Source: Nannocystis bainbridge
GTDB lineage: Bacteria; Myxococcota_A; Polyangia; Nannocystales; Nannocystaceae
Length of the DNA: 64,000 nucleotides
Assembly (NCBI RefSeq): GCF_028368995.1
Contig: NZ_JAQNDL010000003.1
Coordinates: 2,144,001-2,208,000, forward strand
Direction: 5' to 3'
A program made the translations under genes and the position numbers. Positions 1-48,443 of the stretch are shown in pieces. Position 1 is the stretch's first letter. Every line of letters starts with the position of its first letter. Under the pieces are notes generated by a model. The model ran no database searches, was not told where the DNA came from, and saw nothing but the letters and a program-made list of their open reading frames with translations.

Positions 1-2010
1 CACCCGCACCTGCTCGCCGTACTTGGCCTCGAACAGGCCGATCGCGCCGGCGGTCTTGGCGTCGACGGGGCTCATCTCGCGCGTGTCGGTGTCCGCGTTG
101 GCCAGCGTCATCTCGTTGACGATGCGCTCGATCTGCTGCTTCTGCTCCGCCGTGATCGGGCGCGGGTGCGAGAAGTCGAAGCGCAGGCGGTCGGGCGACA
201 CCAGCGAGCCCTTCTGCGCCACGTGGGTGCCGAGCACCGCGCGCAGGGCGTGGTGCAGCAGGTGGGTCGCGCTGTGGTTGCGGCGGATCGCGGCCCGGCG
301 CGCGCCGTCGACCGTGAGCGTGACGAGGCGCCCGACCTCGAGCGTGCCCCGGGTGACCTTGCCGCGGTGGATGTGCACGTCGCCGGTCGGCTTGAGCGTG
401 TCGGCGATCTCGACGCGCACGCCCTCGCCCTCGGCGATGCCGATGTCGCCGACCTGGCCGCCGCTCTCGCCGTAGAACGGGGTGACCTCGGTGATGAACT
501 CGACCTCGTCGCCCTCCTTTGCCGCCGTCTTCTCGACGCCGCCGACGGCCAGCGCGAGCACGCTGGTGCGGCCCGAGAGCTCGGCGTAGCCGGTGAAGCG
601 AGCCTGCTTGGCGAACCGCTCCTTGAAGGAGAAGTAGAGGTTGCCGATCGCCTTGTCGCCGCCGCCGAGGTTGGCCGCCGCGCCGGCCGTCTGGCGCGCC
701 TGGACCTCCTGCTTGACGGCCTCCTCGTCGAGGGTGAGGCCCTTCTCGCGGCTGAGGATCCCGGTGAGGTCGATCGGCAGGCCGTAGGTATCGTAGAGCT
801 CGGCGGCGACGCCGAGCGGGAACGCGGTCTCGCCGGCGGGCAGCTCGGTGACGGCGCCCTCGAACAGCCGCAGGCCGCGCTTGAGGGTGCGACGGAAGCC
901 CTCCTCCTCGCCGCGCACGACCTCCTCGATGGTGGCTGCCCTTTCGACCAGGTTGGGATAGGCCTCGCCGAACTCCTCGACGACCTTCTTGCAGACCTCG
1001 TGGAAGAACAGGTTCTCGAGCCCGACCTTCTCGCCGAAGCGGATCGCGCGGCGCATGATCCGGCGCAGCACGTAGGGGCGAGTGTCGCGGTCGGGGAACA
1101 CGCCGTCGGCGATCAAAAAGGCGGTCGCGCGCGCGTGGTCGGCGATGACGCGGAACGGCGCCTCACCGGCCCCGAGGTCGTGGGCGGGCGCACCGGCGAG
1201 CCGCTTGGCGAGGTCGACGAGCGGGGTGAGCAGCGAGGTGCGGTAGTTGCTGCCGACGCCCTCGAGCACCGAGGCGAGCCGCTCGAGGCCAGCGCCGGTG
1301 TCGATGCTCGGCTTCGGCAGCGGCACGAGCCGACCATCGTCGAACTTCTCGTACTGCATGAACACGAGGTTCCACAGCTCGGTGTAGCGGCTGTCCTCGT
1401 AGGCCGGGCCGCGACCGGCGATGCCGGCGTCCGGCGGGGCCTGGTCGCCGTGGAAGATGTGGATCTCCGAGCACGGGCCGCACGGACCGGTCGGGCCCAT
1501 GGCCCAGAAGTTCTCCTTGGCGGGGAACCGGTAGATCCTGTCCTTCGGGACATACGCGGTCCACAGCTCGTAGGCCTCGTCGTCGGCCGGCGCCGACTCG
1601 CCCTCGCCGCTGAAGACGCTGACGACCAGCCGATCGGCCGGGATGCCGAGATCCTCGGTGAGGAACTCCCAGCCCCAGCGGATCGCGTCCGGCTTGAAGT
1701 AGTCGCCGAACGAGAAGTTGCCGAGCATCTCGAACAGCGTGTGGTGCCGCTCGGTGAAGCCGACGTTGTCGAGGTCGTTGTGCTTGCCGCCGGCCCGCAG
1801 GCACCGCTGCACGGTGACGGCCCGCTTGTACGGCCGCGGGTCACGCCCGAGGAAGGTGTCCTTGAACTGCACCATCCCGGCGTTGGTGAACAGCAGCGTC
1901 GGATCGTTGGCCGGCACCAGCGACGAGGACGGCACGACGGCGTGCTCGCGGGCGGCGAAGTAATTGAGGAATCGGCTGCGGATCTCGTGAGCGCGAATGG
2001 GCCGCTGCAT
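1..2010 (-). CDS. alaS: Alanine--tRNA ligase (3' end lies beyond the left edge of the window)
   Basis: Read manually from ATG at 2010: MQRPIRAHEIRSRFLNYF...SSSLVPANDPTLLFTNAGMVQFKD..., later HHTLFEMLGNFSFGDYFK, WAMGPTGPCGPCSEI, ELWNLVFMQY, IDTGAGLERL, NHSATHLLH, GSLVSPDRLRFDFSH. Missing from the ORF track because there is no stop in the window. Confidence 0.97.
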   Translation of the reverse strand, partial: MQRPIRAHEIRSRFLNYFAAREHAVVPSSSLVPANDPTLLFTNAGMVQFKDTFLGRDPRPYKRAVTVQRCLRAGGKHNDLDNVGFTERHHTLFEMLGNFSFGDYFKPDAIRWGWEFLTEDLGIPADRLVVSVFSGEGESAPADDEAYELWTAYVPKDRIYRFPAKENFWAMGPTGPCGPCSEIHIFHGDQAPPDAGIAGRGPAYEDSRYTELWNLVFMQYEKFDDGRLVPLPKPSIDTGAGLERLASVLEGVGSNYRTSLLTPLVDLAKRLAGAPAHDLGAGEAPFRVIADHARATAFLIADGVFPDRDTRPYVLRRIMRRAIRFGEKVGLENLFFHEVCKKVVEEFGEAYPNLVERAATIEEVVRGEEEGFRRTLKRGLRLFEGAVTELPAGETAFPLGVAAELYDTYGLPIDLTGILSREKGLTLDEEAVKQEVQARQTAGAAANLGGGDKAIGNLYFSFKERFAKQARFTGYAELSGRTSVLALAVGGVEKTAAKEGDEVEFITEVTPFYGESGGQVGDIGIAEGEGVRVEIADTLKPTGDVHIHRGKVTRGTLEVGRLVTLTVDGARRAAIRRNHSATHLLHHALRAVLGTHVAQKGSLVSPDRLRFDFSHPRPITAEQKQQIERIVNEMTLANADTDTREMSPVDAKTAGAIGLFEAKYGEQVRV

Positions 2011-2265
2011 GGGCCGGGGAGAATAATCGATCCGCGCGTCCACGAGCCCCCGCGCGCACGGTGCCCGCCGCGTGCGATTCCGCGCGCACTTCGCGCAGGC
2101 CGAACGAGACGGGCTCGCAGGCGCGTCCCGGCCGGATCATGAGCGGAGGCACGAGGCCGGATCGCCGGGGGCTCGCGTCAGGACCGCCCCGACGAGCGGC
2201 GACGGTCGCCGCGGCGGGAGACGGCCGACGAAGTAGCGAGGCGGGCGGCGCTCGCCGACGCCGCG

Positions 2266-6774: not shown

Positions 6775-8544
6775 TCAGAACGTGATGACCGGGCCGATGT
6801 TGAGGTCGATGAGGAGGCTGGTGGTCCGCGGGAACCACACGCCGACCTGAGCCTCGCCGAACAGGCCGAAGTGCTTGGCGGCCTGCCAGTGGAAGCCGAA
6901 CACGCCGCCGATCATGCCGCCGCCGATCCGGACGGTGTCGATGCGCTGGGACTTGTCGGCGTTGGCGGTCACCGCCGCCGCGCCCTGGATCGCGTTGGTG
7001 CTCTCCGTCCCGCTCGGGTCGCCGCAGTCGTACTTGTACGGCCACACCGCGGTGCACTGACCGCCGCCCTCGAACGCGGCCTCCTTGTCGTCGGGCACCG
7101 AGTTGCCGTTGCGGTCGTTGGCGAAGCCCATCGGCACGCGCAGGCGGGTGAAGCCGCCGCCGAGGAAGCCGCCGGCGAACAGGCGGAACTTCTTCTCGTC
7201 CGAGCCGAAGAAGTACTTGATCTTGAGGCCGCCCGCGATCGTCACGCCCGGCTTGCTGCGGATGCCCTCCGGGTTGGGGTTCGTGACGTCGTTCATGTAC
7301 GAGTCCGGCAGCGACGCCTTGGGGTCGTCGCGGTAGACCTTCGAGCCCGTGACCGCCTGGATGCGGAGGAAGCCCGAGAGCACCAGCTTCTTGCCGATCC
7401 GCCCGCCGATCTCGGGGGCGACGTGGAACGGCGCCGAGGCCATGCCGGTGCTGACCTTGTGGTGGGCCGCGCACTCGCCCGCGTTGTAGGCCATCGCCAG
7501 CTGGTCGACCGAGTACGGCGTGCCGTAGGCCATCACCGTCGGGCCCATCTGCGTCTGGTACTGGACCGGGTCGCCGGGCAGGTCGCCGGTGCCGCTGCTC
7601 CACCGCGCCAGCGCGCAGGCGAACTCCTTGAGGCCGTAGTTGAAGTTGCCGGCCGGGGTGTACTGGCTGTACGTCTGGTCGGCGACCCCGCGGGCCACGC
7701 CGATGCCGGTGCCGAGACCGAGGTTGATGAAGATCTTCGGCAGCGAGTGCTTCGGCGGCGGCGGCTTCTCCGGCTCCTTCTCCTTCGGCGTCTCCTTGAC
7801 GCACTTCACGTCGGCGACGAGCGGGTTGTCCTGCGCGCCCTTGTTGCCGAGCGCCTTGTTGGCGCCGTCGTAGACGTAGACGAAGTACTCGACCGGCTTG
7901 TCGCCGTGCTCCGAGGCCAGCACCTGGGCGGTGGCGATGTTGCCGAAGGCGTCCATCGTCACCGACTTGAAGTCGCCCGAGTCGCCGACGTTGCGCCAGT
8001 AGAGCCCGACCTGGCCGCCGTCGGGGATGCCGGATGTGGCGACCTCGAAGTTCAGGTCCTGGCCGCAGCCGTCGGTCGACGGCGCGGTGTGGCGGACCGA
8101 CTCGCTCGGCGCCGACACGCCCGAGTCCTTGCGCGCCTTGTCGAGCAGCTTCTGCAGGTCGGGCGAGCGCAGCTCGGTCGGCAGCGTCACGTGGTAGTCG
8201 GCCTTGACCGCGCCGACGAACGCCGCCGTGGTGTCGTTCTTGTTGCCCGAGTTCGAGAAGATGATGACCGCCCGCAGCATCCGCAGCGGCGCGGTCGTCG
8301 GGTCCTCGGCGGCGCTGCCCGTGAGCGCCTGGTCGAGGCCCGCCAGCGCCTGGTCGAGCTCGAGGTTGTTGTACTGCCCGAGCGCCTTGTTATAGGCGGC
8401 CTTGAGGTCGTCGCGGCCGTCGGCGAGGGCTGTCCCCGAGGACAGGAGCACGGCCAGCGACAGCGCGGCGGTCAGCAAGCGCGAAGGGGAAAGCCAGCTC
8501 AGGTCCAGGGGCCGACGGGGACGGACGAGGGTCTGCGTTCGCAC
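6775..8544 (-). CDS. Secreted or outer-membrane protein (signal peptide, helical domain, Pro-rich linker, probable C-terminal beta-barrel)
   Basis: Signal ending TALA-D, PEKPPPPK linker, amphipathic strands, terminal Phe (GPVITF); GC-rich third positions. Confidence 0.7.
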   Translation of the reverse strand: MRTQTLVRPRRPLDLSWLSPSRLLTAALSLAVLLSSGTALADGRDDLKAAYNKALGQYNNLELDQALAGLDQALTGSAAEDPTTAPLRMLRAVIIFSNSGNKNDTTAAFVGAVKADYHVTLPTELRSPDLQKLLDKARKDSGVSAPSESVRHTAPSTDGCGQDLNFEVATSGIPDGGQVGLYWRNVGDSGDFKSVTMDAFGNIATAQVLASEHGDKPVEYFVYVYDGANKALGNKGAQDNPLVADVKCVKETPKEKEPEKPPPPKHSLPKIFINLGLGTGIGVARGVADQTYSQYTPAGNFNYGLKEFACALARWSSGTGDLPGDPVQYQTQMGPTVMAYGTPYSVDQLAMAYNAGECAAHHKVSTGMASAPFHVAPEIGGRIGKKLVLSGFLRIQAVTGSKVYRDDPKASLPDSYMNDVTNPNPEGIRSKPGVTIAGGLKIKYFFGSDEKKFRLFAGGFLGGGFTRLRVPMGFANDRNGNSVPDDKEAAFEGGGQCTAVWPYKYDCGDPSGTESTNAIQGAAAVTANADKSQRIDTVRIGGGMIGGVFGFHWQAAKHFGLFGEAQVGVWFPRTTSLLIDLNIGPVITF

Positions 8545-18225: not shown

Positions 18226-18810
18226 GTGGCCTTCCCGCCGCTCGACGAGATCTTGCCGCATCGGCCGCCGATGCTGCTGCTCGACGCGCTGACGGCGGCC
18301 GAGGCCGAGTCGGCGACCTGCCGCGCCACCGTGCGGGCGGGCGCCCCGTTCGTGGTCGGCGAGCGCGTCTCCTCGCTCATCGCGCTCGAGTACTTCGCCC
18401 AGACCGTCGCCGCCCTGTTCGCCTACAAGGCCCGCAGCGGCGCCGGCGGGCCGTTCCGCGGCCTCCTCCTCGGCGCCCGCGACCTCGAGCTCGCCGCCTC
18501 GCACCTGCGCGTCGGCGACGTCCTCGACGTCCACTGCCGCGAGCAGTGGGCCAGCGGCCCGGTCGCCCAGTTCCACTGCACCTTGAACCGCGGCGGCGAG
18601 CAATTGGCCACCGGCGCCGTCACCGTCCTGCGCGGCGACCCGGCCGAGTTCGCCGCCGGCGGCTCCGACCTGTCCCCCGGGACAGCCGCCTCCGACCTGT
18701 CCTCCGGGACATCCAGCCTATCCTCTACGCCAGCCTCCGACCTGTCCCTCGGGACATCCGCCGGGGAGCCGTCCGTCACTCGCCTCGACCTCGTGGAGCC
18801 CGCGCCATGA
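18226..18810 (+). CDS. ApeP-like hotdog dehydratase with repeat-derived C-terminal tail
   Basis: ILPHRPPMLLLD, LEYFAQTVAA, GLLLGAR; tail made of three SDLSxGT units. Confidence 0.8.
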   Translation: MAFPPLDEILPHRPPMLLLDALTAAEAESATCRATVRAGAPFVVGERVSSLIALEYFAQTVAALFAYKARSGAGGPFRGLLLGARDLELAASHLRVGDVLDVHCREQWASGPVAQFHCTLNRGGEQLATGAVTVLRGDPAEFAAGGSDLSPGTAASDLSSGTSSLSSTPASDLSLGTSAGEPSVTRLDLVEPAP

Positions 18811-22400: not shown

Positions 22401-22754
22401 CAAGACCCCCGCGCAGCCCGCTCCCCGCGCGCAGGAGGACGCGCCGAAAGCACGCCAGATGGCGGTTGTTCGGCGGCCAGCCCTGGCCGTCGAACAGCCG
22501 CCCCCCGGTCGGTTGCCTTCAACGATGACTGCATCGGAGCCGAGCGCGGCGCGTCGGCCTCTCACGGCTGCAGCCGTGCCGGGGGTCCGGGGAAGGGTCG
22601 ACCGACAATACGAGGCAGGATGAGCGCGAGGAACGAGCGTTCATCCCGACGCTGAACTGTCGGTCGACCCTTCCCCGGACCCCCTGCGAGACGCAGTCGG
22701 CAATTCGCGAAGCCCCCGCCCCCACTCCCCAAGGACATGTCCCCAAGGACAGAT

Positions 22755-26457: not shown

Positions 26458-26891
26458 AGACCAAGCAGCCGGGCCGCGGCAGCGCGCGCCGGACCCAGCG
26501 GCTGCTGCTGTGGTGCGCCGCCACCGACAGCACCTTCGAGCGCGCGGTCGCGGGCGACGGTCGGGCCGTGCTGACCGGCAAGTGCATCCACTGCAACGCC
26601 CGCCACACCCTCACCGAGGCCGGCGCGCCGCTGACCTCCGCCACCATCGAGCACATCGTCCCGCGCTCGCACGGGGGCACCGACGCGATCGTCAACCTCG
26701 CGATCGCCTGCGCCCGCTGCAACATCGGCAAGGGCCACCGCCTCGACGATCGCCCGTGGCAAGACCCCACCTTGCAGCGGGTCATCGCCACCTTGCAGGA
26801 GCGCCGAACCGCCCGCATGCGCCCGCCGCCCGACTGGCTCGACCTGCCCCCGCTGGCCCCCGCGCCCGACGGTGACGCCGACGAGCCCTGA
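26454..26891 (+). CDS. HNH endonuclease
   Basis: CIHC...TIEHIVPRSHGG...NLAIACARCNIGKG; ATGA-coupled to suhB. Confidence 0.85.
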   Translation: MKTKQPGRGSARRTQRLLLWCAATDSTFERAVAGDGRAVLTGKCIHCNARHTLTEAGAPLTSATIEHIVPRSHGGTDAIVNLAIACARCNIGKGHRLDDRPWQDPTLQRVIATLQERRTARMRPPPDWLDLPPLAPAPDGDADEP

Positions 26892-26944: not shown

Positions 26945-27180
26945 CGTCCTCCGGGACATTTTTTATTGCGAGCCCAGGGCCCATGTGCCGGTTCGCGATG
27001 GGCCGAGCCGGCTCCCTGTCCTCAGGGACATCTGATTCCCAGGGCCTCCGGTGTCGGCTCGCAACGAGCCGAGCCGACGCGCAACGACCTGTCCAAAAGG
27101 ACATTTGATTCCAAGCCAGGGACCCGCTGTCGGTTCGGGCCGAGCCGACGCGCCACGACATGTCCAAAGGGACATCTTAT
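26945..27180. repeat. Four ~72-bp degenerate repeats, each anchored on (T/C)GTCC-N4-GGACA
   Basis: Palindromes at 26945, 27017, 27090 and 27161, each followed by a T-rich T(C/T)T(G/T)ATT-like segment, with GCCGAGCCG between copies. Confidence 0.85.
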
Positions 27181-27393
27181 TCCGCCCCCATGCTCGGGCC
27201 CGAACGACGCTCGCGCCTCCGCCCCTCCGCCCCTCTCGCCCGCGGGAATAACCCCCACCCCCTCGCGCGTGACCTACCCGAGCCGCGCGCGATGAGCCGC
27301 GGCGCCATGACTTCTCGAGCATGTCCCATCGGACATCTCGCCACCACGTGCGCGTGAGGCCTGGGCGCCGGCACGCCGCCGGAGGACCCTGCC

Positions 27394-28637: not shown

Positions 28638-29618
28638 ATGAGCCATCTTCAACCCCTCGCCGCTCTCGGCGGCCTGCTGCTCGGCGGCGCCCTGCTCGGC
28701 GGCCTGCTCTGGTGGCAGTCCGGCCTGCAGCCGCCGGCGCCCCACGACGACTGGCGCCCGCCCTGCCTCGCCCGCCTCGGCAAGACCTACGCCGCCTTCG
28801 CCCCGACCCGCGCCGCCGACGAGCGCCTGGCCCGCAACCTCCTGTTCGGCGTCGACCGCAGCGGCAGCAACCGCGAGCTCGCCGACGCCCAGCTCGACGC
28901 CGCCGTCGCCTACGCCGCCACCCTCGGCCCCGAAGCGGGCGTCGGCGTGCTGCTGATCACCGACCGCAGCGACCGCTCGACCACCCCCGACATGCCCTTC
29001 GAGCCAGGCGAGGTCGGCCAGCGCTGGACCGCCGCCCCGGTGCTGTGCGACGGCTGCAAGCCCGACAGCCTGTTCCAGCAGAAATGCCTCGAGCAGCTCG
29101 AGGTCGCCCAGGGCCGCCGCGTCGGCGAGCTCAACGCCGGCGAGGACGCCCGCCGCACCGGCCTGCAGGAGCAGCGGGCCCTGCGGATCCACGCCTGGCG
29201 CGACCAGGTCGCCGGCTACACCCCCAAACCCGGCACCTCGCTCCTGGCCTTCTTCACCAAGCTCGCCGACCTCCCGCCCGTGCGCCGCGAGCCCGAGCGC
29301 ACGGTCGTCGTCGTCATGTCGGACCTCGAGGCCAGCCAGGCCGGCGAGCGCAAGCAGCTCGACAAGTTCGAGCGCGCCTACCGGTCCTCCGGGACCTGTC
29401 CCGAAGCATCATGGCTGCCGAAGGGCATCTCCGGCCTCGAGATCGCCCTGGTCCAGAGCGTGCGCGACGGCATCGACGCCGACCTGTGGGCCCGCCGCTG
29501 GGACGCCGTGCTCACCTGCGCCGGCGCCCACGTCCGCCGCCACCGCTACAGCACCGCCGTCCCGCTGCGCCAGCTGCTCGACGACCCACCGGGCCCCGCG
29601 CTCGCGCTCGCCGACTGA
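28638..29618 (+). CDS. Membrane-anchored protein with vWA-like MIDAS signature
   Basis: N-terminal TM segment; LLFGVDRSGS (DxSxS), GTS, VVVMSDL. Confidence 0.6.
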   Translation: MSHLQPLAALGGLLLGGALLGGLLWWQSGLQPPAPHDDWRPPCLARLGKTYAAFAPTRAADERLARNLLFGVDRSGSNRELADAQLDAAVAYAATLGPEAGVGVLLITDRSDRSTTPDMPFEPGEVGQRWTAAPVLCDGCKPDSLFQQKCLEQLEVAQGRRVGELNAGEDARRTGLQEQRALRIHAWRDQVAGYTPKPGTSLLAFFTKLADLPPVRREPERTVVVVMSDLEASQAGERKQLDKFERAYRSSGTCPEASWLPKGISGLEIALVQSVRDGIDADLWARRWDAVLTCAGAHVRRHRYSTAVPLRQLLDDPPGPALALAD

Positions 29619-29640
29619 CCCGGCCGGGCCTCCATTCGGA

Positions 29641-29701
29641 TGTCCCCAAGGACATGCCCCTCCAGACATGCCCTTTCGAGCATGCCCGGGCGGACATGTC
29701 C
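29641..29701. repeat. Array of TGYCC-N4-RRRCA units with a 14-bp period
   Basis: TG(T/C)CC at 29641, 29655, 29669, 29683 and 29697; lies between convergent genes. Confidence 0.9.
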
Positions 29702-29702
29702 T

Positions 29703-30620
29703 CTAATTCGCCGGGACCACCCCGAGCTCGCGCAGCCACGCCAGCATCGTCGCCGGCCACGTGCCCATCTGCGGCATCCCGGGCCGCTGGGCCAGGCCGA
29801 CCCCGTGGCGCCCGTCGTCGTACAGCTGCAGCCGCGACGAGGCCCCGCGCGCCCGCGCCGCCTCGTCGTAGAGCTCGCTGTTGTGGAACACCACCTTGGT
29901 GTCGTGGCGCGAGTGGACCAGCATCGCCGGCGGCGCGTCGGCCGTGACGCGCTGCTCGAGCGACAGCTCCTGCACCCGCTCCGGCGTCGCCGGCTCGTCG
30001 CCGAGCATGCTGCGCTTGCTGCGTTGGTGGGCCCAGCGATCGTCGAGCGTCACCACCGGATAGACCATGACGATGAAGTCCGGCCGGCACGACACCTGCT
30101 CGAGCGGGTCCTGGGCCGCGGCGTCGCCCTGCTTCGGGCACGCGGTGGCGACGAAGCCCGCCAGGTGCCCGCCGGCCGAGTAGCCGACGAAGCCGATCTT
30201 GCTCGCGTCGACCCCGAGCTCGCCCGCCTGCGCGCGCACCCGCTGGACCGCGCGCCGGCCGTCGGCCAGGAAATCGCGGTGGTGATAGCCGTCGCCGCTG
30301 ACGCGGTAGCGCAGCACCACCGCCACGAACCCCTGCTCGCTCAGCCAGCGGGCCGTCGGGAACGCCTCCGGCCGCAGCCCGCCGGTGTGCGCGTAGCTGC
30401 CCCCGGGCGCCACGATCGCCGCCGCCCCGTTGGCCTTGCCCGGCGCCGGCAAATAATAGAACAGCTCCGGCCGGTCGGCCTTGGCCGTCCCGCGGGCCCC
30501 CGGCGCCCCGTCGGGCCACAGCAGCTCGTGCCGGGCGAAGTCCCGCGGCGTGCAGCCGAGCGCGACCACCAGCCCCAAAGCACATGTCCCCAGGGACATG
30601 TATTTCAAGAAATGTCTCAT
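29703..30620 (-). CDS. Alpha/beta hydrolase lipoprotein (acetyl-xylan/BD-FAE-like esterase)
   Basis: PGGSY, GYSAGGHL, YPV, PPAMLVH..D..V, GRHGVGL; lipobox ALGC. Confidence 0.85.
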   Translation of the reverse strand: MRHFLKYMSLGTCALGLVVALGCTPRDFARHELLWPDGAPGARGTAKADRPELFYYLPAPGKANGAAAIVAPGGSYAHTGGLRPEAFPTARWLSEQGFVAVVLRYRVSGDGYHHRDFLADGRRAVQRVRAQAGELGVDASKIGFVGYSAGGHLAGFVATACPKQGDAAAQDPLEQVSCRPDFIVMVYPVVTLDDRWAHQRSKRSMLGDEPATPERVQELSLEQRVTADAPPAMLVHSRHDTKVVFHNSELYDEAARARGASSRLQLYDDGRHGVGLAQRPGMPQMGTWPATMLAWLRELGVVPAN

Positions 30621-31057
30621 GCGCCAGCCTCGGCGTCGATGTGGGCGCAGTACGGCGCGATCTCGGCGCGGAAGCTGTCGGTCCACGGGACCGGCCGCTT
30701 GCTCTCGGGATCGACGCGGACCACCGTGCGCCGGCCGGTCGCGTGCTCGATGTCCTCGTCGAGCGGCATCACCCGCAGGCCGAAGGTCAGGCTGGTCCGC
30801 CCGAGCCGCTCGACCCACACGCGCACCCGCACCTGGCCGGTACCGATCACCGGCCGCTGGTAGTCGAGGGAATTCGCGCGCACCAGGTGGTACTGGTCGG
30901 GGTTCGAGTTGAAGTCGAGGACCCCGCCCCAGCCGAGCTGCCGCCAGAACGAGCCGATCGCGTGCTCGAAGAGGAGCAGGTAGCGGGCGTTGTGGAGGAT
31001 GTGGAACGCGTCGAGGTCGTCGAAATAAACCCCGTGGATCGTCTCGTGGAAACGCAT
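30617..31057 (-). CDS. Acyl-CoA thioesterase (4HBT family)
   Basis: VYFDDLDAFHILHNARYLLLFE; LGRTS. Confidence 0.88.
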   Translation of the reverse strand: MRFHETIHGVYFDDLDAFHILHNARYLLLFEHAIGSFWRQLGWGGVLDFNSNPDQYHLVRANSLDYQRPVIGTGQVRVRVWVERLGRTSLTFGLRVMPLDEDIEHATGRRTVVRVDPESKRPVPWTDSFRAEIAPYCAHIDAEAGA

Positions 31058-31222: not shown

Positions 31223-32062
31223 ATGGACGCCCGCCAACACCACGCCCGCCAGCAATTCACCCGCCTCGCGGGCGCCCCCGACCACGCCCTCGACCTCGGC
31301 GAGACCGCGCTGTGGATCGGCGCCGAGGAAGACGGGCCGGTCGCCGTCGAGGACTACCTGGCCCGCCTCGACGACCTCGCGGCGACCTTGCGCCAGCGCC
31401 TGCTGCCCGAGCACACCGCGCGCGAGCGGCTCGATCGACTGCTCGCCTACGTGTTCCGCGAGCTCGGCTTCCACGGCAACGAGTCCGACTACTACGACCC
31501 GCGCAACAGCTACTTCCACCAGGTGCTCGACCGCCGCTGCGGCCTGCCGATCTCGCTGGCGCTGCTGCTGATCGAGCTGGCGCGGCGGGTCGGCCTGCGC
31601 GTCGCCGGGGTCGGCTTCCCGGCCCACTTCCTCGCCGTCGACCTCGACCTGCCGCAGCTCTTCATCGACCCGTTCCACGGCGGGCGCCTGCTGACCGAGT
31701 ACGAGTGCCGGGTGATGCTGCGGCAGAAGACCCAGGGCCGGGTCGAGTTCGACCGCAATCAACTGCGCCCGGTCGGCGGTCGTCAGCTGCTGGTGCGCAT
31801 GCTGAACAACCTCAAGAGCGTGCACCTGAGCCGCGGCGACCTCGAGCGCGCGCTCGCGGCCAGCGACCGGATCCTCCTGCTCAGCCCCGGCGCCGCCGAG
31901 GAGTACCGCGACCGCGGACTGTGCCAGCTGCAGCGCCGGGCCTACCGCGCCGCCGCCCTGGACCTCGACCATTACCTCAGCCTCGCGCCGATGGCCGACG
32001 ACCGCCAGTTGGTCGCTGCCCGCGCGGTCGAGGCCCGCAACAAAGCCCGCCTGGCCAATTGA
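31223..32062 (+). CDS. SirB1-family protein with C-terminal TPR
   Basis: GFHGNESDYYDPRNSY, GLPISL, GVGFPAHFL, RMLNNLK, RDRGL. Confidence 0.9.
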   Translation: MDARQHHARQQFTRLAGAPDHALDLGETALWIGAEEDGPVAVEDYLARLDDLAATLRQRLLPEHTARERLDRLLAYVFRELGFHGNESDYYDPRNSYFHQVLDRRCGLPISLALLLIELARRVGLRVAGVGFPAHFLAVDLDLPQLFIDPFHGGRLLTEYECRVMLRQKTQGRVEFDRNQLRPVGGRQLLVRMLNNLKSVHLSRGDLERALAASDRILLLSPGAAEEYRDRGLCQLQRRAYRAAALDLDHYLSLAPMADDRQLVAARAVEARNKARLAN

Positions 32063-32083
32063 CCAGGCGGGCACCTCGCCGGC

Positions 32084-32359
32084 TCACACGTCGTGGGCCA
32101 TCTGCAGCATCTGCGGGATGAAGTGGACCCGCACCTTGATCATGCTCTCCCACTTGCGCTGCGTCTGGCTCCGCACCCCCTCGTGATCGGGCTTGAGGGC
32201 GTTGCTGTTGACCGTGTCGTTCTCGAAGTCGTAGGCCTGGGTGGCGCCCTTTTGGCCCCTGCGGGCGGCCGCGTCGGCGTCGGCGTCGGTCTTGGCGGCG
32301 GGCGCGGCCCAGGCGGTGGTGGAACAGAGCACGAGCGAAGCGAGGACGATGAAGCGCAT
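32084..32359 (-). CDS. Small secreted protein resembling the myxobacterial gliding protein CglF/GltF
   Basis: Signal peptide, then YDFENDTVNSNALKPD...WESMIKVRVHFIPQML; AGGAG upstream. Similarity is from memory of the family, not from a search. Confidence 0.6.
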   Translation of the reverse strand: MRFIVLASLVLCSTTAWAAPAAKTDADADAAARRGQKGATQAYDFENDTVNSNALKPDHEGVRSQTQRKWESMIKVRVHFIPQMLQMAHDV

Positions 32360-34624: not shown

Positions 34625-35617
34625 TCAACGCCGCCCGGCCTGCAACACCAGCGGATGCCCCGACAGCTGATCGAGCTGCTCCACGACCTCGCTGTCCTCG
34701 CGGACATATGCGTCGAGGAACGTCGAGATCACCTCGACGAAGAAGTTCCGCAGCGCCTCGCCCGGCGCCGTCGCCCGGTGATCGAGGAACGACCGCCCGG
34801 TGGTCGGATCGTCGGGGTGGCAGAACGCGAAGTGATTGGCCCCCGCGAGCAGGAACATGTGGGCGTCCCCACGGCCGCCCGGCAGCGCCTCGTGGAAGGT
34901 GCGCCGGATCAACGCGAACGCATCCGCCGGCGATGACCCGTAGCGATGACTGCTGGCCGCGATCACCCCATCGCGCTCGCCGCCGAGGAGCAGCAGCGGC
35001 ACCTCGCCCGGCAGCGGCAGCAGCGAGTGCTCCGGCCAGCCGAGCGCCGTCAGGGCCCCCGCGTGACCCGCATACGCGAACGCGGCCGAGAGGTTGTTGA
35101 AGTAGCGCAGGGCCGCGTTCTGCAGCGCTGCGCAGCCGCCGGCGGAGTGGCCGCCGAGCACGACGTGCTCGAGATCGAGCAAGCCGGCGAGGATGCCCTC
35201 GCACTGCAACCTGGCCAGCTCCTCGAGCAGCGGCCCGATCGTGGTCGACGTCGGCGCGTGACCGAAGCCCTCCGGCCCGAGGCGCGAACCATCGAACCCG
35301 GGCGTGAGCCCGACCACTCCTGGCTCGCCGAGCCGCACCTCGCCGACCAGCGAGAACGTCACGAACACGTAACCGCGATCGGCCAGCGCCTGCGCCAGCC
35401 ACCGGTAGCTCTCCGGCCCGACGTTGACGCCCGGCAGGAAGATCACGACCGGAAACGGCCCCGCGTCGGCGTCCGCCTCGACCGCCCCGAGCTCGCGCTC
35501 GGCCATCCCGCCGGTCAACCGCCCCGGGTAGAACACCCGCGCGTGCAGCGTGTCGTGCGGCCCTCGCAGCCCCGGCAACCGCACCGCCCGATGGAGCGCG
35601 CGCACGATGCGAGTCAT
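34625..35617 (-). CDS. Alpha/beta hydrolase (chlorophyllase/dienelactone hydrolase-like)
   Basis: PFPVVIFLPG, GHSAGG, GERDGV, GANHFAF. Confidence 0.82.
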   Translation of the reverse strand: MTRIVRALHRAVRLPGLRGPHDTLHARVFYPGRLTGGMAERELGAVEADADAGPFPVVIFLPGVNVGPESYRWLAQALADRGYVFVTFSLVGEVRLGEPGVVGLTPGFDGSRLGPEGFGHAPTSTTIGPLLEELARLQCEGILAGLLDLEHVVLGGHSAGGCAALQNAALRYFNNLSAAFAYAGHAGALTALGWPEHSLLPLPGEVPLLLLGGERDGVIAASSHRYGSSPADAFALIRRTFHEALPGGRGDAHMFLLAGANHFAFCHPDDPTTGRSFLDHRATAPGEALRNFFVEVISTFLDAYVREDSEVVEQLDQLSGHPLVLQAGRR

Positions 35618-39800: not shown

Positions 39801-40072
39801 ATCGCCAGCCCCGCAGGCGCCTGACCGATCGGCCAGGTCTCCATCGCCCCCGACCCGCCCCACGCGATCGTCAGCGTCCCCAGCGATGGGCTGACCGTCA
39901 CCCACTCGCCCACCCCGTCGCCGTCGAGGTCGTGCACCTGCGCCGGGCCCTCGCCGCCGCCCAGGCCGAACCGCTCGCCCGGCGTCGCGCACACCTGGTC
40001 GATCGCACATTGCTCCGCGGCCAGCTCACACCCGGCCATCAGCACCATCACGACCGCCGCGACTGCCCTCAT
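36878..40072 (-). CDS. FG-GAP/VCBS repeat lipoprotein
   Basis: Many D[LFV]DGDG..D repeats; lipobox MAGC; ATGA-coupled to the upstream gene. Confidence 0.9.
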   Translation of the reverse strand: MRAVAAVVMVLMAGCELAAEQCAIDQVCATPGERFGLGGGEGPAQVHDLDGDGVGEWVTVSPSLGTLTIAWGGSGAMETWPIGQAPAGLAIADFDGDGRLEIAAPLAGEAAVALLRGGAVEKVPVGPQPVAVAAADLDGDGRAELIVADAEAGDLRVLRAGAMGMASGAPIAAGERPTAVTTGDFSGDGRIDVVVTLAGEGTARLFFGTGDGGLRAGGELYAGASPQQALAADLDGDGALDLAVIDALLDEVAVVFGDGAGGAREARRWPVAAGPSDMSLWTGPNGHELLVMSRLQPALTRLPLAAPERRTTTDAEAWDGLAVGDVDGDGRDEVVVRDAGAGATVLRERPGFGFTPWFSTRAAGLTGPMVARDLDRDGWTDLVVSDGERGELVVLRGQEGGFAAPVRSPGPDGAAALALADLDGDGVDDVVTWRRAGQASAGEVQAGRLWSARGVGERFASPVEFAFAGDPRRVVGFDADGDGRSELLALQGAFAGEAAEATTGLLTLALTGEAFALVDASMSREFAASDDLIVGEFSAEYAGDELLHVGQGSEGPQIVIESRSAGQRWIAGTLPEGRTLGLTRADVDGDGLADLLVCRDDGLIIATGRAWNLFAPAVWVSTSRCDGALVEELDGDGRVDVLMLSERFASPRVTVQLGHALPWLPQLVAGGMTTASNRPRALAVADFDGDGVPDLAAAGEDGLEVLRGGPQGVLVADRSPARQTGQAQAVQLGDVDGDGSDEVVVLGRDGGVGTGRFDGTGSLGHVRYDMSFGASENAAGLLLDFDGDGIDELLTAQTEGTGLWRARGDRWVPVAKRGLEVRASGPLRAGDVDGDGDADLVYVEPAGVLVTHLGGPEGLSAGRRGPLVAAGAMGLALGDVDRDGRLDALLLSWGGGAHVYGGDGSGGFASAPKTWPLGWSAGPLAAGDVDGDGHGDVLAAAGYAGGATLRVCHGGASGPRGDCRDLRLGPEEAQIGGLAVEDFDGDGVTDVLAVLVAGTSRRLVFARGGADGPTLHTKPLPAGGSATIADGQIQQARLDDEGPEWVYVDREGLTRLGVRARSSE

Positions 40073-41136
40073 TCCCCGAGCTTCTCCACCACCACCCCGA
40101 ACGTCACCGGCGCGGCGGCCTCGGTCTCGGCGCGCAAGAAGTAGCGGCCCGCCGGGAGCTCGACCTCCCGCACCTCGCCGGCGAGCAGCCGCACCAGGCT
40201 GGCCCGCTCGCACCCGCCACAGCTCCCGATCGTCGCCCGCACCGCCCCGCTGTCGCGCAGCTCGACGCGGAAGCGCCCCGTCGCCGCGACCTCGAAGCTG
40301 TGCAGCGTCCGCACATTCACCCCCGCGGCCCCGATCGCCGTGTCGTCCTCGCAGTCGAGCGTCAAGGAGCGGGCCAGCCGGTCGCCGTCCCACGCCAGCT
40401 CGGGCGCCTCGCACTCGAATGTTTTAAAACGATACCCCGAATAGTAGCAGTCCGCCCGCTCGGCCTCGAACTCGACGACGGTCTGCTCGAGCGTCGTCCC
40501 GAACACCGCACGAAACGCGCGCGCCAGGGTCCGGTACGAATCGGCGTACCAGGTCCGGCGATAGAACTCGAGGTGCAGGTCCAGCCCGAAGCGATCGATC
40601 AGGTAGCGGGTGAACGCCCCGGCGACAAAATAATACTCGCCTGGCAGCCACAGCGAGCGGCCCCGCAGCGCCGTCAACACCCGCGACATCGGAGCGGCCT
40701 TATCCCCGTCGCCGGCCTGCGGCTCATCGTCGGTCGGCCTGGCATCGCGCGCCCCGCCCTCGAACGCCATCGCCAGGCCCTCGACGAAGAACGGATGCGC
40801 CAGCCCGAGGTCGCTCGCTACCGCATGGACCAGCTCGTGCTCATGCGGCATCTCGGTGGCGTAGACCGTGCGACCCAGCGCGCACGCCGGCATGCCCGCA
40901 CACGGGTTGCGCCGCGCGTAGTGCTCCGGCGTCATCCAGCGGTAGGAGATCCGCGGCTCGTCCGGCAGCGGCAGCCCGCTCGCCCCGGCGAACCACTCGA
41001 CGAACCGGTCCATGTGCTCGAGCGTGCCGCCGCACATCTGCAACCCGGCGTCCGCCTCGACCTCGACCTGCCGCCCCCGCGTCTCCGCCGTCTCCAGACA
41101 GCCGACCAGCCACCAAACCATCCCCACCAAGATCAC
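40069..41136 (-). CDS. Lipoprotein with HExxH zinc-metallopeptidase motif (gluzincin-like)
   Basis: LVGC lipobox; HELVH...FVEGLA; start approximate. Confidence 0.7.
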   Translation of the reverse strand: MILVGMVWWLVGCLETAETRGRQVEVEADAGLQMCGGTLEHMDRFVEWFAGASGLPLPDEPRISYRWMTPEHYARRNPCAGMPACALGRTVYATEMPHEHELVHAVASDLGLAHPFFVEGLAMAFEGGARDARPTDDEPQAGDGDKAAPMSRVLTALRGRSLWLPGEYYFVAGAFTRYLIDRFGLDLHLEFYRRTWYADSYRTLARAFRAVFGTTLEQTVVEFEAERADCYYSGYRFKTFECEAPELAWDGDRLARSLTLDCEDDTAIGAAGVNVRTLHSFEVAATGRFRVELRDSGAVRATIGSCGGCERASLVRLLAGEVREVELPAGRYFLRAETEAAAPVTFGVVVEKLGE

Positions 41137-41406
41137 GTGTCCCCAAGGACATCTTTTTTTAATGGGGCGAGCGGACGCCCGGGTGAGGATCGAGGACAGC
41201 ACCGACCTCGGCAGGCTACTTCAGCAACCTCGGCCAGATCTCACGAACCATCAAAAAACCCTCAACGCGATCGCACGGCGCCCCACCCGCCCTCTTCATA
41301 TCTCGAGTGGCAACGCTCGCAGCGATCACCCGACCGGCGCCTCGCTCGCCGCAACCTGAAGCCGCGCTCGCCGCAATCACAAGTGGATGCCGGGCATCAT
41401 TCCTGG

Positions 41407-44226: not shown

Positions 44227-44913
44227 CTAACCCATGAAGCGCAGCGGATCGTCGGGCCGCTCCGCCTGGCTGCGCAGCGCCCCCTTGCGCTGCGAAGCGA
44301 TCGCTGCCCGCGTGCGGTCGACCAGGCTCGCCGGCACCCGGATCTTCGAGAGCTTGCCGGTCAGCACCACCCCGCCGGTCAGCAGATCGCGACGGACCCG
44401 CTGCACCGCCGAGAATTGCAGCCGCTGCGGCTCTCCGCGGCGCGGCACCTCGAGCACCGCCGTATCGGTGACCAGGATCGCCCGCTGGCTGAATTGCTCG
44501 CGCACCAGCCACAGCAGCATCGGCGACAGCAGCACCGCGATCGGCCGCCACAGATCGGCGAACGGTTGGTCCCAGAACTCCGGCGCCAGCAGGCTCGCCA
44601 CCAGCAGCACCGCCGCGCTGATGCCCCCGATCCACGCCAGCGGCCGCAGGTCGAAGCCTGCCTTCGCGTCCCACCACACCAGCGCCTCGCCGAGCCGCAG
44701 GTGCCGCGCGATCTCCAGCGGCGCCGTCCCCGGCGACGGCGGGGCCCCGGGCGCCAGCACACGTGGCCCTCCGGGCATGTCCATATAGACAGGTTCTTGC
44801 ACCGCCTCGGGCGGCAGATCGTACACCAGCGGCCCCGGCGGCAGCGCCGGCCGCTCGCCCCCGGAGACCACCCGGAACGCCCGTCGGCGCGCCTCGGGGG
44901 ACTCGTCCGTCAT
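44227..44913 (-). CDS. Membrane protein with bPH-like C-terminal domain
   Basis: Two TM segments followed by AILVTDTAVL; ATGA-coupled to aroC. Confidence 0.65.
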   Translation of the reverse strand: MTDESPEARRRAFRVVSGGERPALPPGPLVYDLPPEAVQEPVYMDMPGGPRVLAPGAPPSPGTAPLEIARHLRLGEALVWWDAKAGFDLRPLAWIGGISAAVLLVASLLAPEFWDQPFADLWRPIAVLLSPMLLWLVREQFSQRAILVTDTAVLEVPRRGEPQRLQFSAVQRVRRDLLTGGVVLTGKLSKIRVPASLVDRTRAAIASQRKGALRSQAERPDDPLRFMG

Positions 44914-46019
44914 CGCCGCAGCCCGTCCATCGTCGCCAGGCGGGCCCGCAGCATGTGGTCGCACAGGACCAGCGCGGCCATCGCCTCGACCATCGGCACC
45001 GCCCGCGGCAGCACGCACGGGTCATGGCGCCCGCGGGCCTGGAACGTCACCGCCTCGCCGGCGCGATTGACCGTCTGCTGCGGCTGGAAGATCGTCGCCA
45101 CCGGCTTGAACGCGACCGCCAGGCGGATCGCCTCGCCGTTGCTGATCCCGCCCTGGATCCCGCCTGAATGATTGGTGACCGTCCGGACCTGCCCGCGCTC
45201 GTCCTTGACGAATGGGTCGTTGTGCTGCGACCCGCGCAGCCTGGTCGACGCGAACCCGTCGCCGACCTCGAAGCCGCGGCTGGCCGGCAGGCTCATCATC
45301 GCCTTTGCCAGGTCCGCCGTCAGCTTGTCGAACACCGGCGCGCCCCAGCCCGCCGGCACCCCGCGCACCACGCAGCGGACCACCCCGCCGACCGTGTCGC
45401 CCTGCTTGCGCGCCGCCTCGATCACCGCCGTCATGTCCTCTGCGACATGTCCCTCGGGACAGCGAACCGCGCTGGCGTCGACCTGCGCGCGCGTCAACGT
45501 CGCCTCGTCGACCGCGGGCAGCACCACGTCGCCGACGGCCGCCACCCACGCCACGATCTCGATCCCGTGCAGCGCCGCCAGCAGGTCCTCCGCCAGCGTC
45601 CCCGCCGCCACCCGGCCGACCGTCTCGCGCGCCGACGCCCGCCCGCCGCCGGCCACCGCCCGCAGCCCGTAGCGCGCGTCGTACGTGTAATCCGCGTGCG
45701 ACGGCCGGTACAGCGCCGCCAGGTCGTCGTAGTGGTGGCTGCGCGCGTCGCTGTTGCCGACCATCATCATGATCGGCGTGCCGAGCGTCAGCCCCGTCTC
45801 CGGCTCGAGCCCGCTGTACACCTGGACCGCGTCGGCCTCCTGGCGCGCCGAGGTCAGCTTGCCCTGGCCCGGCCGCCGGCGCGCCATCTGCTCGGCGATC
45901 CGCGCGTGCGGGAACGGATGCCCCGCCGGACAGCCGTCGACGACCACCCCGAGCCCCCCGCCGTGTGACTCGCCGAAGGTCGTGACCCGAAAGACATGTC
46001 CGAAGGTGTTGCCGCTCAT
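44910..46019 (-). CDS. aroC: Chorismate synthase
   Basis: TTFGESHG, RPSHAD, GGRASARET, NHSGGIQGGISNG, GRHDPCV. Confidence 0.98.
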   Translation of the reverse strand: MSGNTFGHVFRVTTFGESHGGGLGVVVDGCPAGHPFPHARIAEQMARRRPGQGKLTSARQEADAVQVYSGLEPETGLTLGTPIMMMVGNSDARSHHYDDLAALYRPSHADYTYDARYGLRAVAGGGRASARETVGRVAAGTLAEDLLAALHGIEIVAWVAAVGDVVLPAVDEATLTRAQVDASAVRCPEGHVAEDMTAVIEAARKQGDTVGGVVRCVVRGVPAGWGAPVFDKLTADLAKAMMSLPASRGFEVGDGFASTRLRGSQHNDPFVKDERGQVRTVTNHSGGIQGGISNGEAIRLAVAFKPVATIFQPQQTVNRAGEAVTFQARGRHDPCVLPRAVPMVEAMAALVLCDHMLRARLATMDGLRR

Positions 46020-46055
46020 GGTGTCCCCAAGAACATGTCCTTCACGCCAGGAAAC

Positions 46056-47255: not shown

Positions 47256-47480
47256 TTCTCACCAGCCGCCCGCGAGTGATTCTCACCCGCCGCCCGCGAG
47301 TCCGTCCCGTCACCCCTCCGCGAGTGATTCTCACCGCTCGCGAGCGTTTCTCGCCCGCCGCCCGCGAGTCCGCCTCGTCCCCCCTCCGCGAGTGAGTCTC
47401 ACCGCTCGCGAGCGATTCCCGCCCGCCGCCCACGAGTCCGTCTCGTTCCCCTCCGCGAGTGAGTCTCGCCCGCGAGCTCG
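47250..47480. repeat. Nested repeat: 20-24-bp units forming a ~68-bp higher-order period
   Basis: GAG-initiated units at 47250, 47274, 47298, 47322, 47342, 47366, 47390, 47410, 47434 and 47457; several contain GTGA-N3-TCAC. Confidence 0.85.
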
Positions 47481-47509
47481 AGCCGCCCGACCCGCTACAC
47501 TCGCAAACA

Positions 47510-48250
47510 GTGTACCGCGAGCACCCAGCCCCGCCCGAGCTCGCGGACCTCGTCGACGCCTTCTGGACCCGCACCGTCGACGCCCCCCAGCACGACCGCA
47601 GCTACCGCGTCCTCCCTGACGGCTGCATCGACGTGATCGTGCACCTCGTCGGCGCCCCGCGGATCGAGGTCGTCGGCACCATGACGCGCGCCCTCCTCGT
47701 CCCCGACACCGCCTCCGACATCGTCGCCGTCCGCTTCCGCCCCGGGGCCGCGCGCGCCTTCTTCACCGTGCCTGCCGACGCCCTCACCGACGCCCGCGTC
47801 CCCGTCGATGCGCTCGGCTGGCCTGCCGCCGCGCTCCTCGACGTCCTCGCCACCCTGCCCGACGCCCGCGCCCGCGTCCACCACCTCGCCCGCGTGCTGC
47901 TCGCGCATCGCCGCCACCCCCTCGACCCGCTCGTCGCCCGCGCCACCCGGGCCCTCGCCCAGACGCGACCTCCCAGCATCGCCGAGCTCGCCGACACTCT
48001 CGGCATCACCCGCCAGTCGCTCGCTCGCCGTGTGCGCCAGGCCGTCGGCGTCGGCCCCAAAGAGCTCGCCCGCGTCTTGCGCCTGCAACGAGCCGCCCTG
48101 GCCCTGCGCGCCGCCCCGCGCGACCACGCCGCCCTCGCCTGCGAGCTCGGCTACCACGACCAGGCCCACTTCATCCACGAGATGCGCGCCCTCGGCGGCC
48201 TCACCCCCGGCGCCTACGCCCGCACCCTGGCGCCGACCGACCCCTCGTGA
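47510..48250 (+). CDS. AraC-family transcriptional regulator
   Basis: RVLPDGCID N-terminal domain; VGVGPKELARVLRL, GYHDQAHF..E HTH. Confidence 0.9.
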   Translation: MYREHPAPPELADLVDAFWTRTVDAPQHDRSYRVLPDGCIDVIVHLVGAPRIEVVGTMTRALLVPDTASDIVAVRFRPGAARAFFTVPADALTDARVPVDALGWPAAALLDVLATLPDARARVHHLARVLLAHRRHPLDPLVARATRALAQTRPPSIAELADTLGITRQSLARRVRQAVGVGPKELARVLRLQRAALALRAAPRDHAALACELGYHDQAHFIHEMRALGGLTPGAYARTLAPTDPS

Positions 48251-48443
48251 CCCCGCCATCACCTGTCCCCTCGGACAGCTCACTCGCGTCGCCCCATCAC
48301 CTGTCCCCTCGGACAGCCTACTCGCGCCGCCGTCACCCCGCCACCCCGTTCTCCAGGCCCCCCGGACAGCCCTCTCCCGCGGCCGCACGCCCCGCGCACC
48401 ATTTTTACAATCCCCGCCGCGCCCCCTGTGGCATCCCTCGGCC

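Follow-up and report, generated by a model that had tools for sequence, protein, structure and literature searches.

Short palindromes iterated along bacterial chromosomes, such as the repetitive extragenic palindromes (REPs) and the cyanobacterial element HIP1, have been known for decades, and their functions are still debated. A hallmark of REPs is a conserved GT[AG]G head beside the stem. The known uptake words, namely the DNA uptake sequences (DUS) and uptake signal sequences (USS), are asymmetric 9-12-mers that are enriched singly; they number about 10^3 copies per genome, lie in genic and intergenic DNA, are rarer in foreign DNA, are common to related genera, and often occur behind genes in inverted pairs that also act as terminators. 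Rickettsia palindromic elements (RPEs) are palindromic insertions of 100-150 bp that also occur in frame within protein genes. The FNR-type operator has a 5-N4-5 layout (TTGAT-N4-ATCAA), and the ribbon-helix-helix proteins MetJ, omega and ParR bind tandem boxes as rows of dimers; both kinds of site serve a regulon or a plasmid centromere and number in the tens. REPs and bacterial interspersed mosaic elements (BIMEs) are described, in part in one published account (PMC2817692), as hundreds to thousands of short hairpin palindromes, mostly extragenic, lying 3' of genes or between convergent genes, forming regular arrays and specific to lineages. HIP1 (GCGATCGC) is described as a short palindrome of cyanobacteria that is 15- to 300-fold enriched, apparently under selection, present in coding and non-coding DNA, clade-wide and of unknown function (PMC5861425); it is an uninterrupted octamer, and orphan methyltransferases that recognise its core are associated with it (PMC4390886, PMC13756078). 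Here we analyse TGTCC-N4-GGACA, a 14-bp palindrome that recurs throughout much of a 64-kb stretch of the genome of Nannocystis bainbridge (Myxococcota; assembly GCF_028368995.1, contig NZ_JAQNDL010000003.1, positions 2,144,001 to 2,208,000), which we call the window. The source genome (G000) comprises 11.05 Mb in 5 contigs at about 71.5% GC, and the window is C2:2144001-2208000 in our numbering; the closest named relatives of one window protein come from five Nannocystis species, at 92-94% identity.

An earlier sequence-only reading of the window had listed 17 perfect copies of the palindrome and had estimated that chance would supply fewer than one per 64 kb. Every listed start was verified, and in 100 dinucleotide-preserving shuffles of the window the mean was 0.03 copies and the maximum 1. 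Sites with at most one mismatch number 40 against 1.83 expected; 12 of the 13 near-matches on the earlier list are of this kind, and the one at 36855 is not. A genome-wide comparison of spacer lengths, which the sequence-only reading had proposed as a check, singles out one length: for k = 0-15, a spacer of k = 4 gives 1,987 copies and each other spacer 0-19. The motif read backwards, as a control, occurs 3 times in the genome. With an observed-to-expected ratio of 156, calculated from 5-mer frequencies, the palindrome stands by far at the top of all 5-N4-5 inverted repeats in G000. Sites with one mismatch number 4,258 in the genome, and the relaxed pattern TG[TC]C[CT]-N4-[GA]G[AG]CA finds 4,173 sites, as against 55 for its reversed control. 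The palindrome system is thus real and strongly non-random.

The palindrome is also the building block of regular arrays, a feature that had escaped the sequence-only reading. The decamer GGACATGTCC occurs 956 times in G000 and GGACA-N14-TGTCC 638 times, and the sequence logos around both have a period of 14 nt. Distances between successive CATG words peak at 14, 28, 42, 56 and 70 nt (3,736, 2,073, 1,586, 751 and 383 pairs, respectively), over a background of about 60-480 pairs at other distances. Chains of CATG at exact 14-nt spacing number 2,066; 801 of them have 3-12 units, and 710 of these 801 are intergenic. The 14-nt period indicates that the palindrome is a single 14-bp unit, the head-to-tail duplication of which makes the GGACA/TGTCC junction. 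Within coding sequences, the N4 pair is 33-fold enriched over a synonymous shuffle, the decamer 8-fold, and the single arms 1.5- and 0.8-fold; because the pair is enriched and its single arms hardly are, the pair is the unit and the 14-mer the primary entity. The spacer had been described as constant in length and free in sequence. Its length is indeed fixed at 4, but its sequence is biased to Y-Y-R-R and enriched in A/T, T first, then A; pairing within it is not in excess (at positions 5/8, 584 Watson-Crick pairs vs 661 expected). The three bases outside each arm are biased as well, to R-C-A/C before the palindrome and T/G-G-Y after it, which had not been described before and which gives the extended consensus RCA-TGTCC-YYRR-GGACA-TGY. 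Variants in one arm are frequent in G000 (TGTCT, 407+461; TGCCC, 381+314; TGGCC, 335+451), and symmetric double variants are about as frequent as the single-variant rates, multiplied together, would give, which is the behaviour of two half-sites that are read independently.

We next consider where the sites lie relative to genes, as called on G000 with a custom codon-likelihood open reading frame (ORF) caller (8,181 genes, 84.4% coding). By these approximate class counts, 1,166 of the 1,987 perfect sites are in intergenic DNA, which makes up 16% of the genome, genes hold 805, and a further 16 fall on boundaries. Convergent intergenic regions carry 1.62 perfect sites/kb, tandem regions 0.66, divergent regions 0.21 and coding DNA 0.086, and a relaxed site or CATG chain is present in 788/1,364 convergent (58%), 940/3,885 tandem (24%) and 223/1,478 divergent (15%) regions. 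In tandem regions the density is 1.9/kb in the first 20 nt past the stop, about 1.0/kb at 20-80 nt, and 0.3-0.5/kb over the 60 nt that precede the next start. In convergent regions the normalised density is 4.1 and 3.8/kb within 20 nt of the nearer stop and 0.48/kb at a distance of at least 90 nt. A perfect site starts no more than 14 nt past the stop in 263 genes, most commonly after a gap of 2 nt (41 genes), so that the stop codon touches the extended consensus. Neither this pile-up at stop codons nor the order convergent > tandem > divergent > coding had been noted before; together with the arrays they resemble REP/BIME elements and suggest that the palindrome functions where transcription units end. 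The sequence-only reading was right that sites lie both between and inside unrelated genes (in the window, 10 perfect sites are intergenic and 7 genic), and its view that the motif is not the operator of one regulon is supported. Two candidate roles were tried and rejected. The idea that the ATG of GGACATGTCC supplies start codons was dropped, T1 falling at +1 of the called start in just 11 sites. A canonical intrinsic terminator was likewise set aside: hairpins form, but the U-tract is lacking, with TTTT following 16 of 335 oriented near-stop sites (mirror control, 8).

Copies inside genes are in excess even when the encoded proteins are held fixed. The 805 copies in coding sequences compare with 24.4 (maximum 34) in synonymous-codon shuffles and 5.1 in codon-order shuffles, while spacers of k = 1-3 and 5-7 give 0-7 copies; the enrichment of k = 4 thus survives a codon-preserving control. 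For three of the genic window sites, those in the alanyl-tRNA synthetase gene alaS, the chorismate synthase gene aroC and a hydrolase-like gene, alignments of six genomes have no indel at the site, and the copies arose in place by substitution; their spelling makes use of rare codons such as TAT, AGG, TGT, GGA and CAT. Genic sites are even along gene length, and their frame counts (460, 280 and 65) favour the frames that fit GC-rich codons. The flanks of genic sites differ by 14.5% at codon positions 1-2, as against genome averages of 6.9% and 5.1% for these two positions, which indicates that the sites occupy less constrained stretches of protein. A second genic mode takes the form of in-frame repeat blocks: of 90 pairs of neighbouring genic sites, 78 have a spacing that is a multiple of 3, and the blocks encode linkers rich in Pro, Ala, Ser and Asp, for example PVPADMS. 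In large proteins of G000, 21-60-nt in-frame tandem repeats are built around one palindrome (C2:1217434-1217686, C2:2066961-2067333, C2:2616755-2616971 and C3:586331-586502), and the linkers that they encode are likewise Pro/Ala/Ser/Asp-rich, such as PVPADMSPVTSS.

Between species, the arms are constrained, and spacers and unit number are free. We aligned 316 kb of a genome of the same genus (G010) to G000 and scored sites in both directions, which have 16 sites in common and so are not independent. From G000 to G010, 5/82 third-codon positions were changed in the arms and 44/166 in flanks plus spacer (Fisher p = 8e-5); in the opposite direction the figures were 1/62 and 31/124 (p = 2e-5). At non-coding sites the corresponding changes were 7/59 in the arms and 40/109 in flanks plus spacer (p = 6e-4), and 3/50 and 44/109 (p = 4e-6). 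The three bases that adjoin each arm are conserved too (1/46 and 0/34 third positions changed). Among 149 orthologous intergenic regions of the two genomes, 38 have an element in both, 105 in neither and 6 in one only, and the unit counts agree in 12 of the 38 shared loci and differ in 26. Loci are therefore old and stable and arms constrained, with spacers and unit number free.

Along the chromosome, the sites follow no large-scale pattern. Each of the five contigs, and each sign of GC skew, has about 18 sites per 100 kb, the two skew switches are unremarkable, distances between loci are near-exponential (coefficient of variation 1.17), and no kb-scale periodicity was seen. Density mapping against origin and terminus, likewise proposed earlier, thus revealed no ori- or ter-restricted pattern. 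Stretches of low GC are poor in sites (0-1.6 per 20 kb below 70% GC vs 3.3-4.6 at 70-74% GC), even though the motif has a lower GC content than the genome does. Within the window, the stretch 48400-64000 has a GC content of 0.64-0.68 as compared with 0.70-0.75, lacks the motif even at one mismatch, and contains two giant ORFs (51660-60770, and 60808 past the window end); it may be more recently acquired DNA.

Among related Myxococcota, enrichment is confined to three genera of the family Nannocystaceae, of which we sampled 71 genomes. All 22 sampled genomes of these genera (g1, g2 and g15) are enriched, with 67-2,090 copies as against 0-10 for controls: 114-2,090 copies in g1 (11 genomes including G000), 67-696 in g15 (7 genomes) and 87-169 in g2 (5 genomes). 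The 14 other genera of the family are near control level in 49 of 49 genomes (0-20 copies; controls 0-7), and outside the family, genomes of the same class have 0-2 copies each. Even within one genus, copy density is unequal from genome to genome. Of three-unit arrays, the six large g1 assemblies (G000 among them) have 1,005-1,670 and the five fragmented ones 2-62; outside g1 there are 107 in one g15 genome and 0-17 in all others. Either the genus as sampled has two deep branches or short-read assembly loses arrays, and arrays may break such assemblies. In viral contigs the two-unit pattern was met in a single contig.

The reading that we tentatively favour is that a dimeric factor recognises the palindrome as its site, that the site is kept up across the whole genome, and that at gene ends it has been amplified into punctuation capable of forming hairpins. 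Beyond the abundance, anatomy, placement, constraint and phyletic range described above, we infer a protein reader, an action on duplex DNA and a function at gene ends. Because the 5-4-5 geometry, strict spacing, independent half-sites and purine/pyrimidine-symmetric spacer fit a dimer on duplex DNA, RCA-TGTCC-YYRR-GGACA-TGY would most likely be read in that form. The motif would be kept throughout the genome by selection or sequence-specific drive, within genes via codon choice, and tandem duplication of the exact 14-bp unit would produce arrays of 2-12 abutting sites. Such arrays, placed mainly in the first 20 nt past stops and in most convergent junctions and predicted to form long hairpins on either strand, would probably serve as punctuation of transcription units in either direction, whether through termination or roadblock, protection of 3' ends, or relief of supercoiling. 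Of the earlier proposals, the dimer site and the likeness to HIP1 both stay apt, in view of the largely independent variation of the half-sites, the 33-fold excess over synonymous shuffles and the conservation of the arms at synonymous sites; the binding code itself remains inferred.

Several points weigh against a dimer-read punctuation site. No binding protein was found, the proximity to stop codons is unexplained by duplex binding alone, and 805 conserved intragenic sites are awkward under a roadblock model. The class counts come from simple in-house gene calls, and a single pair of species does not suffice to separate selection from biased conversion or drive. Two further points favour RNA pairing: symmetric doubles of the transition type are 1.3-1.9-fold above the independence expectation, a pairing signal, and multi-site arrays near stops fold better on the sense strand, in 53 vs 31 cases. 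Between DNA and RNA we nevertheless lean, tentatively, towards a sequence-specific reader of duplex DNA, and arrays would likely have hairpin formation as a further property. Orientation independence is uninformative in this respect, because a palindromic stem gives the same RNA stem from either strand.

That the element acts only as RNA is the alternative to which these last two points belong, and we consider it unlikely. On this account, the palindromes would be stem-loops of 3' untranslated regions that serve as terminators or as barriers to 3' exonucleases, like the REPs of Escherichia coli, with the same hairpin whichever strand is transcribed and with a stem sequence conserved through common descent or an RNA-binding factor. 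Placement next to stops and the convergent > tandem > divergent order agree with it, as does the great stability of array hairpins: the array between two convergent genes of the window (Table 1) folds as RNA into one long hairpin, at -52.4 kcal/mol on the minus strand (z -7.35) and -33.9 on the plus strand (z -3.35). The sense-strand advantage cited above is found among near-stop arrays of at least 2 sites; over all arrays in tandem regions, sense and antisense show no difference in stability (536 vs 562). Two wobble-type variants are sense-biased within 60 nt of stops (A11>G, 69 vs 33; C3>T, 28 vs 14), yet the pooled wobble test is weak and heterogeneous (153 vs 121, p = 0.06), C4>T running the opposite way (51 vs 67), and the modest excess of transition-type doubles must be set against an abundance of one-arm variants that cannot pair; taken together, the strand tests for RNA pairing are weak and do not agree with one another. 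Also listed in favour is that a 20-kb part of the window shows no enrichment of sites resembling canonical terminators (5 vs 3.8 expected). The missing U-tract counts against an RNA-only element; a high-GC mycobacterial polymerase is reported to require one (PMC3993855). Nor does an RNA-only element explain the 805 intragenic copies held by codon choice or the 223 divergent regions that have an element. A second alternative, which we regard as unlikely, is that the palindrome is a selfish or mutational product, either a unit like a REP or a MITE (a transposable element of the miniature inverted-repeat type) spread by some enzyme, or the outcome of slippage and hairpin-templated correction without benefit to the cell. 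Unit number does change fast: it differs at 26 of the 38 shared loci, in one genome of the genus about six identical units stand at a place occupied by two in the window, and in-frame motif blocks range from absent to three sites among six genomes. The uneven densities within one genus and the 78 of 90 genic pairs at multiples of 3, which build Pro/Ala/Ser/Asp-rich linkers, fit as well. Against such spread, however, the presence or absence of loci is very stable, with 6 of 149 discordant between two species, and the copies in alaS, aroC and the hydrolase-like gene are in-place, indel-free substitutions. As for an enzyme, no match to PF01797, the profile of the RAYT/Y1 transposases, was found in G000 (90.5% complete), by a search that as a control matched 6 of 14 reference genomes. 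Nor do elements flank any paralogous family: out of 8,179 genes, 151 have an element on either side, and when these are grouped by similarity the largest cluster contains 6 members, with the look of secreted proteins. Slippage, moreover, gives expansion, not one 10-base arm sequence fixed over three genera and conserved at synonymous sites.

The palindrome could also be a tag for self-recognition that molecular drive has spread, after the manner of the Neisseria DUS and the Haemophilus USS, in which case DNA bearing the motif would be preferentially taken up or recombined and the arrays at gene ends later co-opted as terminators. Copies in coding and non-coding DNA, intragenic copies in less conserved stretches of protein, random spacing along the chromosome, depletion from atypical low-GC DNA and the same word in three related genera at differing densities would all suit a tag of this kind. 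Genes for ComEC and DprA are present, but these are near-universal and their presence says little. Arrays of up to 12 abutting units are foreign to DUS and USS, the known words are asymmetric and singly enriched whereas here just the pair is, and the stop-adjacent excess in convergent regions exceeds what tolerance predicts; we therefore judge a tag decidedly unlikely. A chromosome-domain code like matS/MatP, SBS/SlmA, NBS/Noc or parS/ParB, systems to which the sequence-only reading had drawn analogies, is very improbable. The element shares with these a many-copy palindrome of dimer geometry, but its density is similar on five contigs and under both replichore signs (mean 18 per 100 kb), its spacing is near-exponential, and its placement follows gene ends, not chromosomal position; the analogies have accordingly been given up.

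The sites of the window, listed in Table 1, illustrate both single copies and arrays.

Table 1. Palindrome sites and arrays in the 64-kb window.
Feature	Position in window	Strand	Context	Peptide read
Single site in alanyl-tRNA synthetase gene (alaS)	1539..1552	minus (CDS)	coding sequence (CDS) reaching 2043	Y-V-P-K-D-R
Single site in signal-peptide-like N-terminus	8431..8444	minus (gene)	gene 6775-8478	
Three sites in C-terminal tail of ApeP-like dehydratase	18671..18756	+	gene 18226-18810	
Array of 14-bp units, one perfect (22738)	22700..22754		abuts stop of minus-strand Ser/Thr kinase gene 22755-25358	
Intergenic block, four perfect sites and one 1-mismatch site	26945..27335		past stop at 26891	
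Array of about five units	29633..29700		between convergent genes 28638-29618 (plus) and 29703-30578 (minus)	
Array of about three units	30578..30616		fills gap between minus-strand genes 29703-30578 and 30617-31057, directly past thioesterase stop	
Single site in alpha/beta-hydrolase-like gene	34693..34706	minus (gene)	gene 34625-35617	Y-V-R-E-D-S
Intergenic site	41138..41151		just upstream of called start of minus-strand gene 40069-41136; T-run follows	
Two abutting units, perfect (45448) and 1-mismatch (45434), in chorismate synthase gene (aroC)	45420..45461	minus (gene)	gene 44910-46019	R-C-P-E-G-H-V-A-E-D-M
Two perfect sites 38 nt apart	48264..48315		begin 14 nt past stop of AraC-family gene 47510-48250	

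The alaS product matches Pfam tRNA-synt_2c (E 5e-183), and the arms of its site are unchanged in five genomes of the same genus, with the spacer altered in one. In the signal-peptide-like N-terminus the arms are identical across five such genomes and the spacer is different in all five, and the site in the hydrolase-like gene has identical arms in 6 of 6 genomes. The aroC site, spelled with the rare codons TGT, GGA and CAT, lies inside the Pfam Chorismate_synt domain (E 2e-130), with no indel across six genomes. In the ApeP-like protein, the Pfam domain ends at residue 143 of 194, and the C-terminal tail contains in-frame repeats at 27- and 45-nt spacing with the peptide SDLSxGT...; this block has three sites in the window, two in three named Nannocystis species and one in N. 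punicea, and is wholly missing in N. radixulma.

Four intergenic loci are shared as well. The array at 22738 occupies the same place in all five other genomes with differing unit numbers (about six identical units in one), that at 29641 was found in the four other genomes that could be aligned, that at 30585 is kept in six of six, and units related to the site at 41138 lie at the same place in all five others; unit numbers and spacers of these four vary between genomes. The block past the stop at 26891 includes, at 26945-27180, three copies of a 71-73-nt repeat, each with one palindrome and then a T(T/C)TGATTCC-like sequence; the near-copy at 26945 is followed by TTTTTTATTG, which has the look of a terminator. 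The sites at 48264 and 48302 each fold as a 6-bp hairpin. On the minus strand at 32045-32072, after gene 32084-32359, is a canonical-looking terminator (a 12-bp GC-rich stem, then TTTGTTG), which indicates that ordinary terminators exist beside the arrays. Directly upstream of the 22738 array, at 22455-22720, we observed a dispersed element about 270 nt long that contains an inverted repeat; it has 13 more copies in G000 at 78-83% identity and many in other genomes of the genus, has no Rfam match, and could be a MITE or a structured RNA gene.

Methyltransferases of the C5 and D12 classes were profiled; there are, in addition, about ten N6/N4 methyltransferase genes. No match to the C5 profile PF00145 was found in G000, and an explanation of Dcm/Vsr type was ruled out on that ground. 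The single D12-class adenine methyltransferase gene, at C1:3591256-3592302 (minus strand; locus L071 1204-2253), immediately follows a YbgF-like gene on its downstream side. Being present in 68 of the 71 family genomes, enriched or not, the D12 enzyme does not track the motif and was discarded as an explanation; it looks like an orphan housekeeping methylase. In the fragmented assemblies G002, G004, G006, G008 and G009, this methylase has 66-71% identity, as against 93-96% in five large genomes, and no match was found in G004. The sequence-only reading had not recognised the motif. No Rfam family matches at gathering score within the window, and we found no description in the literature on the motif, on Nannocystis repeats or on myxobacterial REPs and terminators, supplementary files being outside reach. 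The main text of RepRanger does not contain Myxococc-, Nannocystis, Sorangium, Deltaproteobacteria or RAYT, although its supplements might list such genomes, and the N. exedens genome note leaves palindromes unmentioned. The iterated palindrome system is apparently undescribed so far.

These findings also raise a bolder and more doubtful possibility, that a dedicated dimeric protein and the 14-bp palindrome together form a genome-wide punctuation code in one clade of Nannocystaceae, in which abutting rows of sites immediately past stops and at most convergent junctions would stop or insulate transcription in both directions and single genic copies would be kept by codon choice. If so, bacteria would have in it an equivalent of the roadblock type of terminator exemplified by mTERF or Reb1/TTF-I arrays, and it would be a second, independent HIP1-like system. 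Its reader should be findable by comparing the three enriched with the 14 non-enriched genera, since the sharp phyletic boundary (22 enriched vs 49 background genomes) allows a trans-acting factor to be sought by gene presence and absence. The motif is sharply defined, with one spacer length and ten fixed bases, and function is testable in cultivable strains. The element also bears on annotation: in these genomes of 11-13 Mb, over half of all convergent gene ends are marked by arrays, which also build in-frame linkers of low complexity in proteins.

With regard to known systems, the Nannocystis element is nearest in placement to the REP/BIME elements of Enterobacteria and Pseudomonas, being abundant, mainly extragenic (1,166/1,987), clustered (801 chains of at least 3 units) and biased to gene ends. 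Unlike them, it has no RAYT gene that we could find, its unit is an exact bipartite palindrome of only 14 bp with abutting copies, about 40% of its perfect copies are genic and held by codon choice, and the GTAG head is absent from its flanks (R-C-A/C before, T/G-G-Y after). With HIP1 it shares strong enrichment, 156-fold genome-wide and 33-fold over synonymous shuffles. It differs from GCGATCGC in sequence and phylum, in its bipartite form with a 4-bp gap, in its tandem arrays and gene-end bias, and in its methyltransferases, no C5 enzyme having been found and the D12 enzyme failing to track the motif. Copy number, the mixture of genic and intergenic copies, depletion from low-GC DNA and presence in several genera recall DUS and USS; unlike in these, enrichment is limited to the inverted pair at spacer 4. 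In-frame genic repeats, such as the 27-nt units of the ApeP-like tail and the PVPADxS-type linkers, recall RPEs, from which the element is set apart by the many genic copies that arose in place by substitution. The 5-4-5 dimer-site geometry and the head-to-tail arrays of short boxes are those of FNR and ribbon-helix-helix operators, but copies of the motif run to thousands, and we linked no protein of that kind to it; unlike matS, SBS, NBS and parS, it has no chromosomal domain of restriction or exclusion. By their defining features, the element belongs to none of REP/BIME, HIP1 and the uptake sequences. Instead, it joins the REP traits of gene-end placement and arrays with the HIP1 trait of maintenance at synonymous sites within genes.

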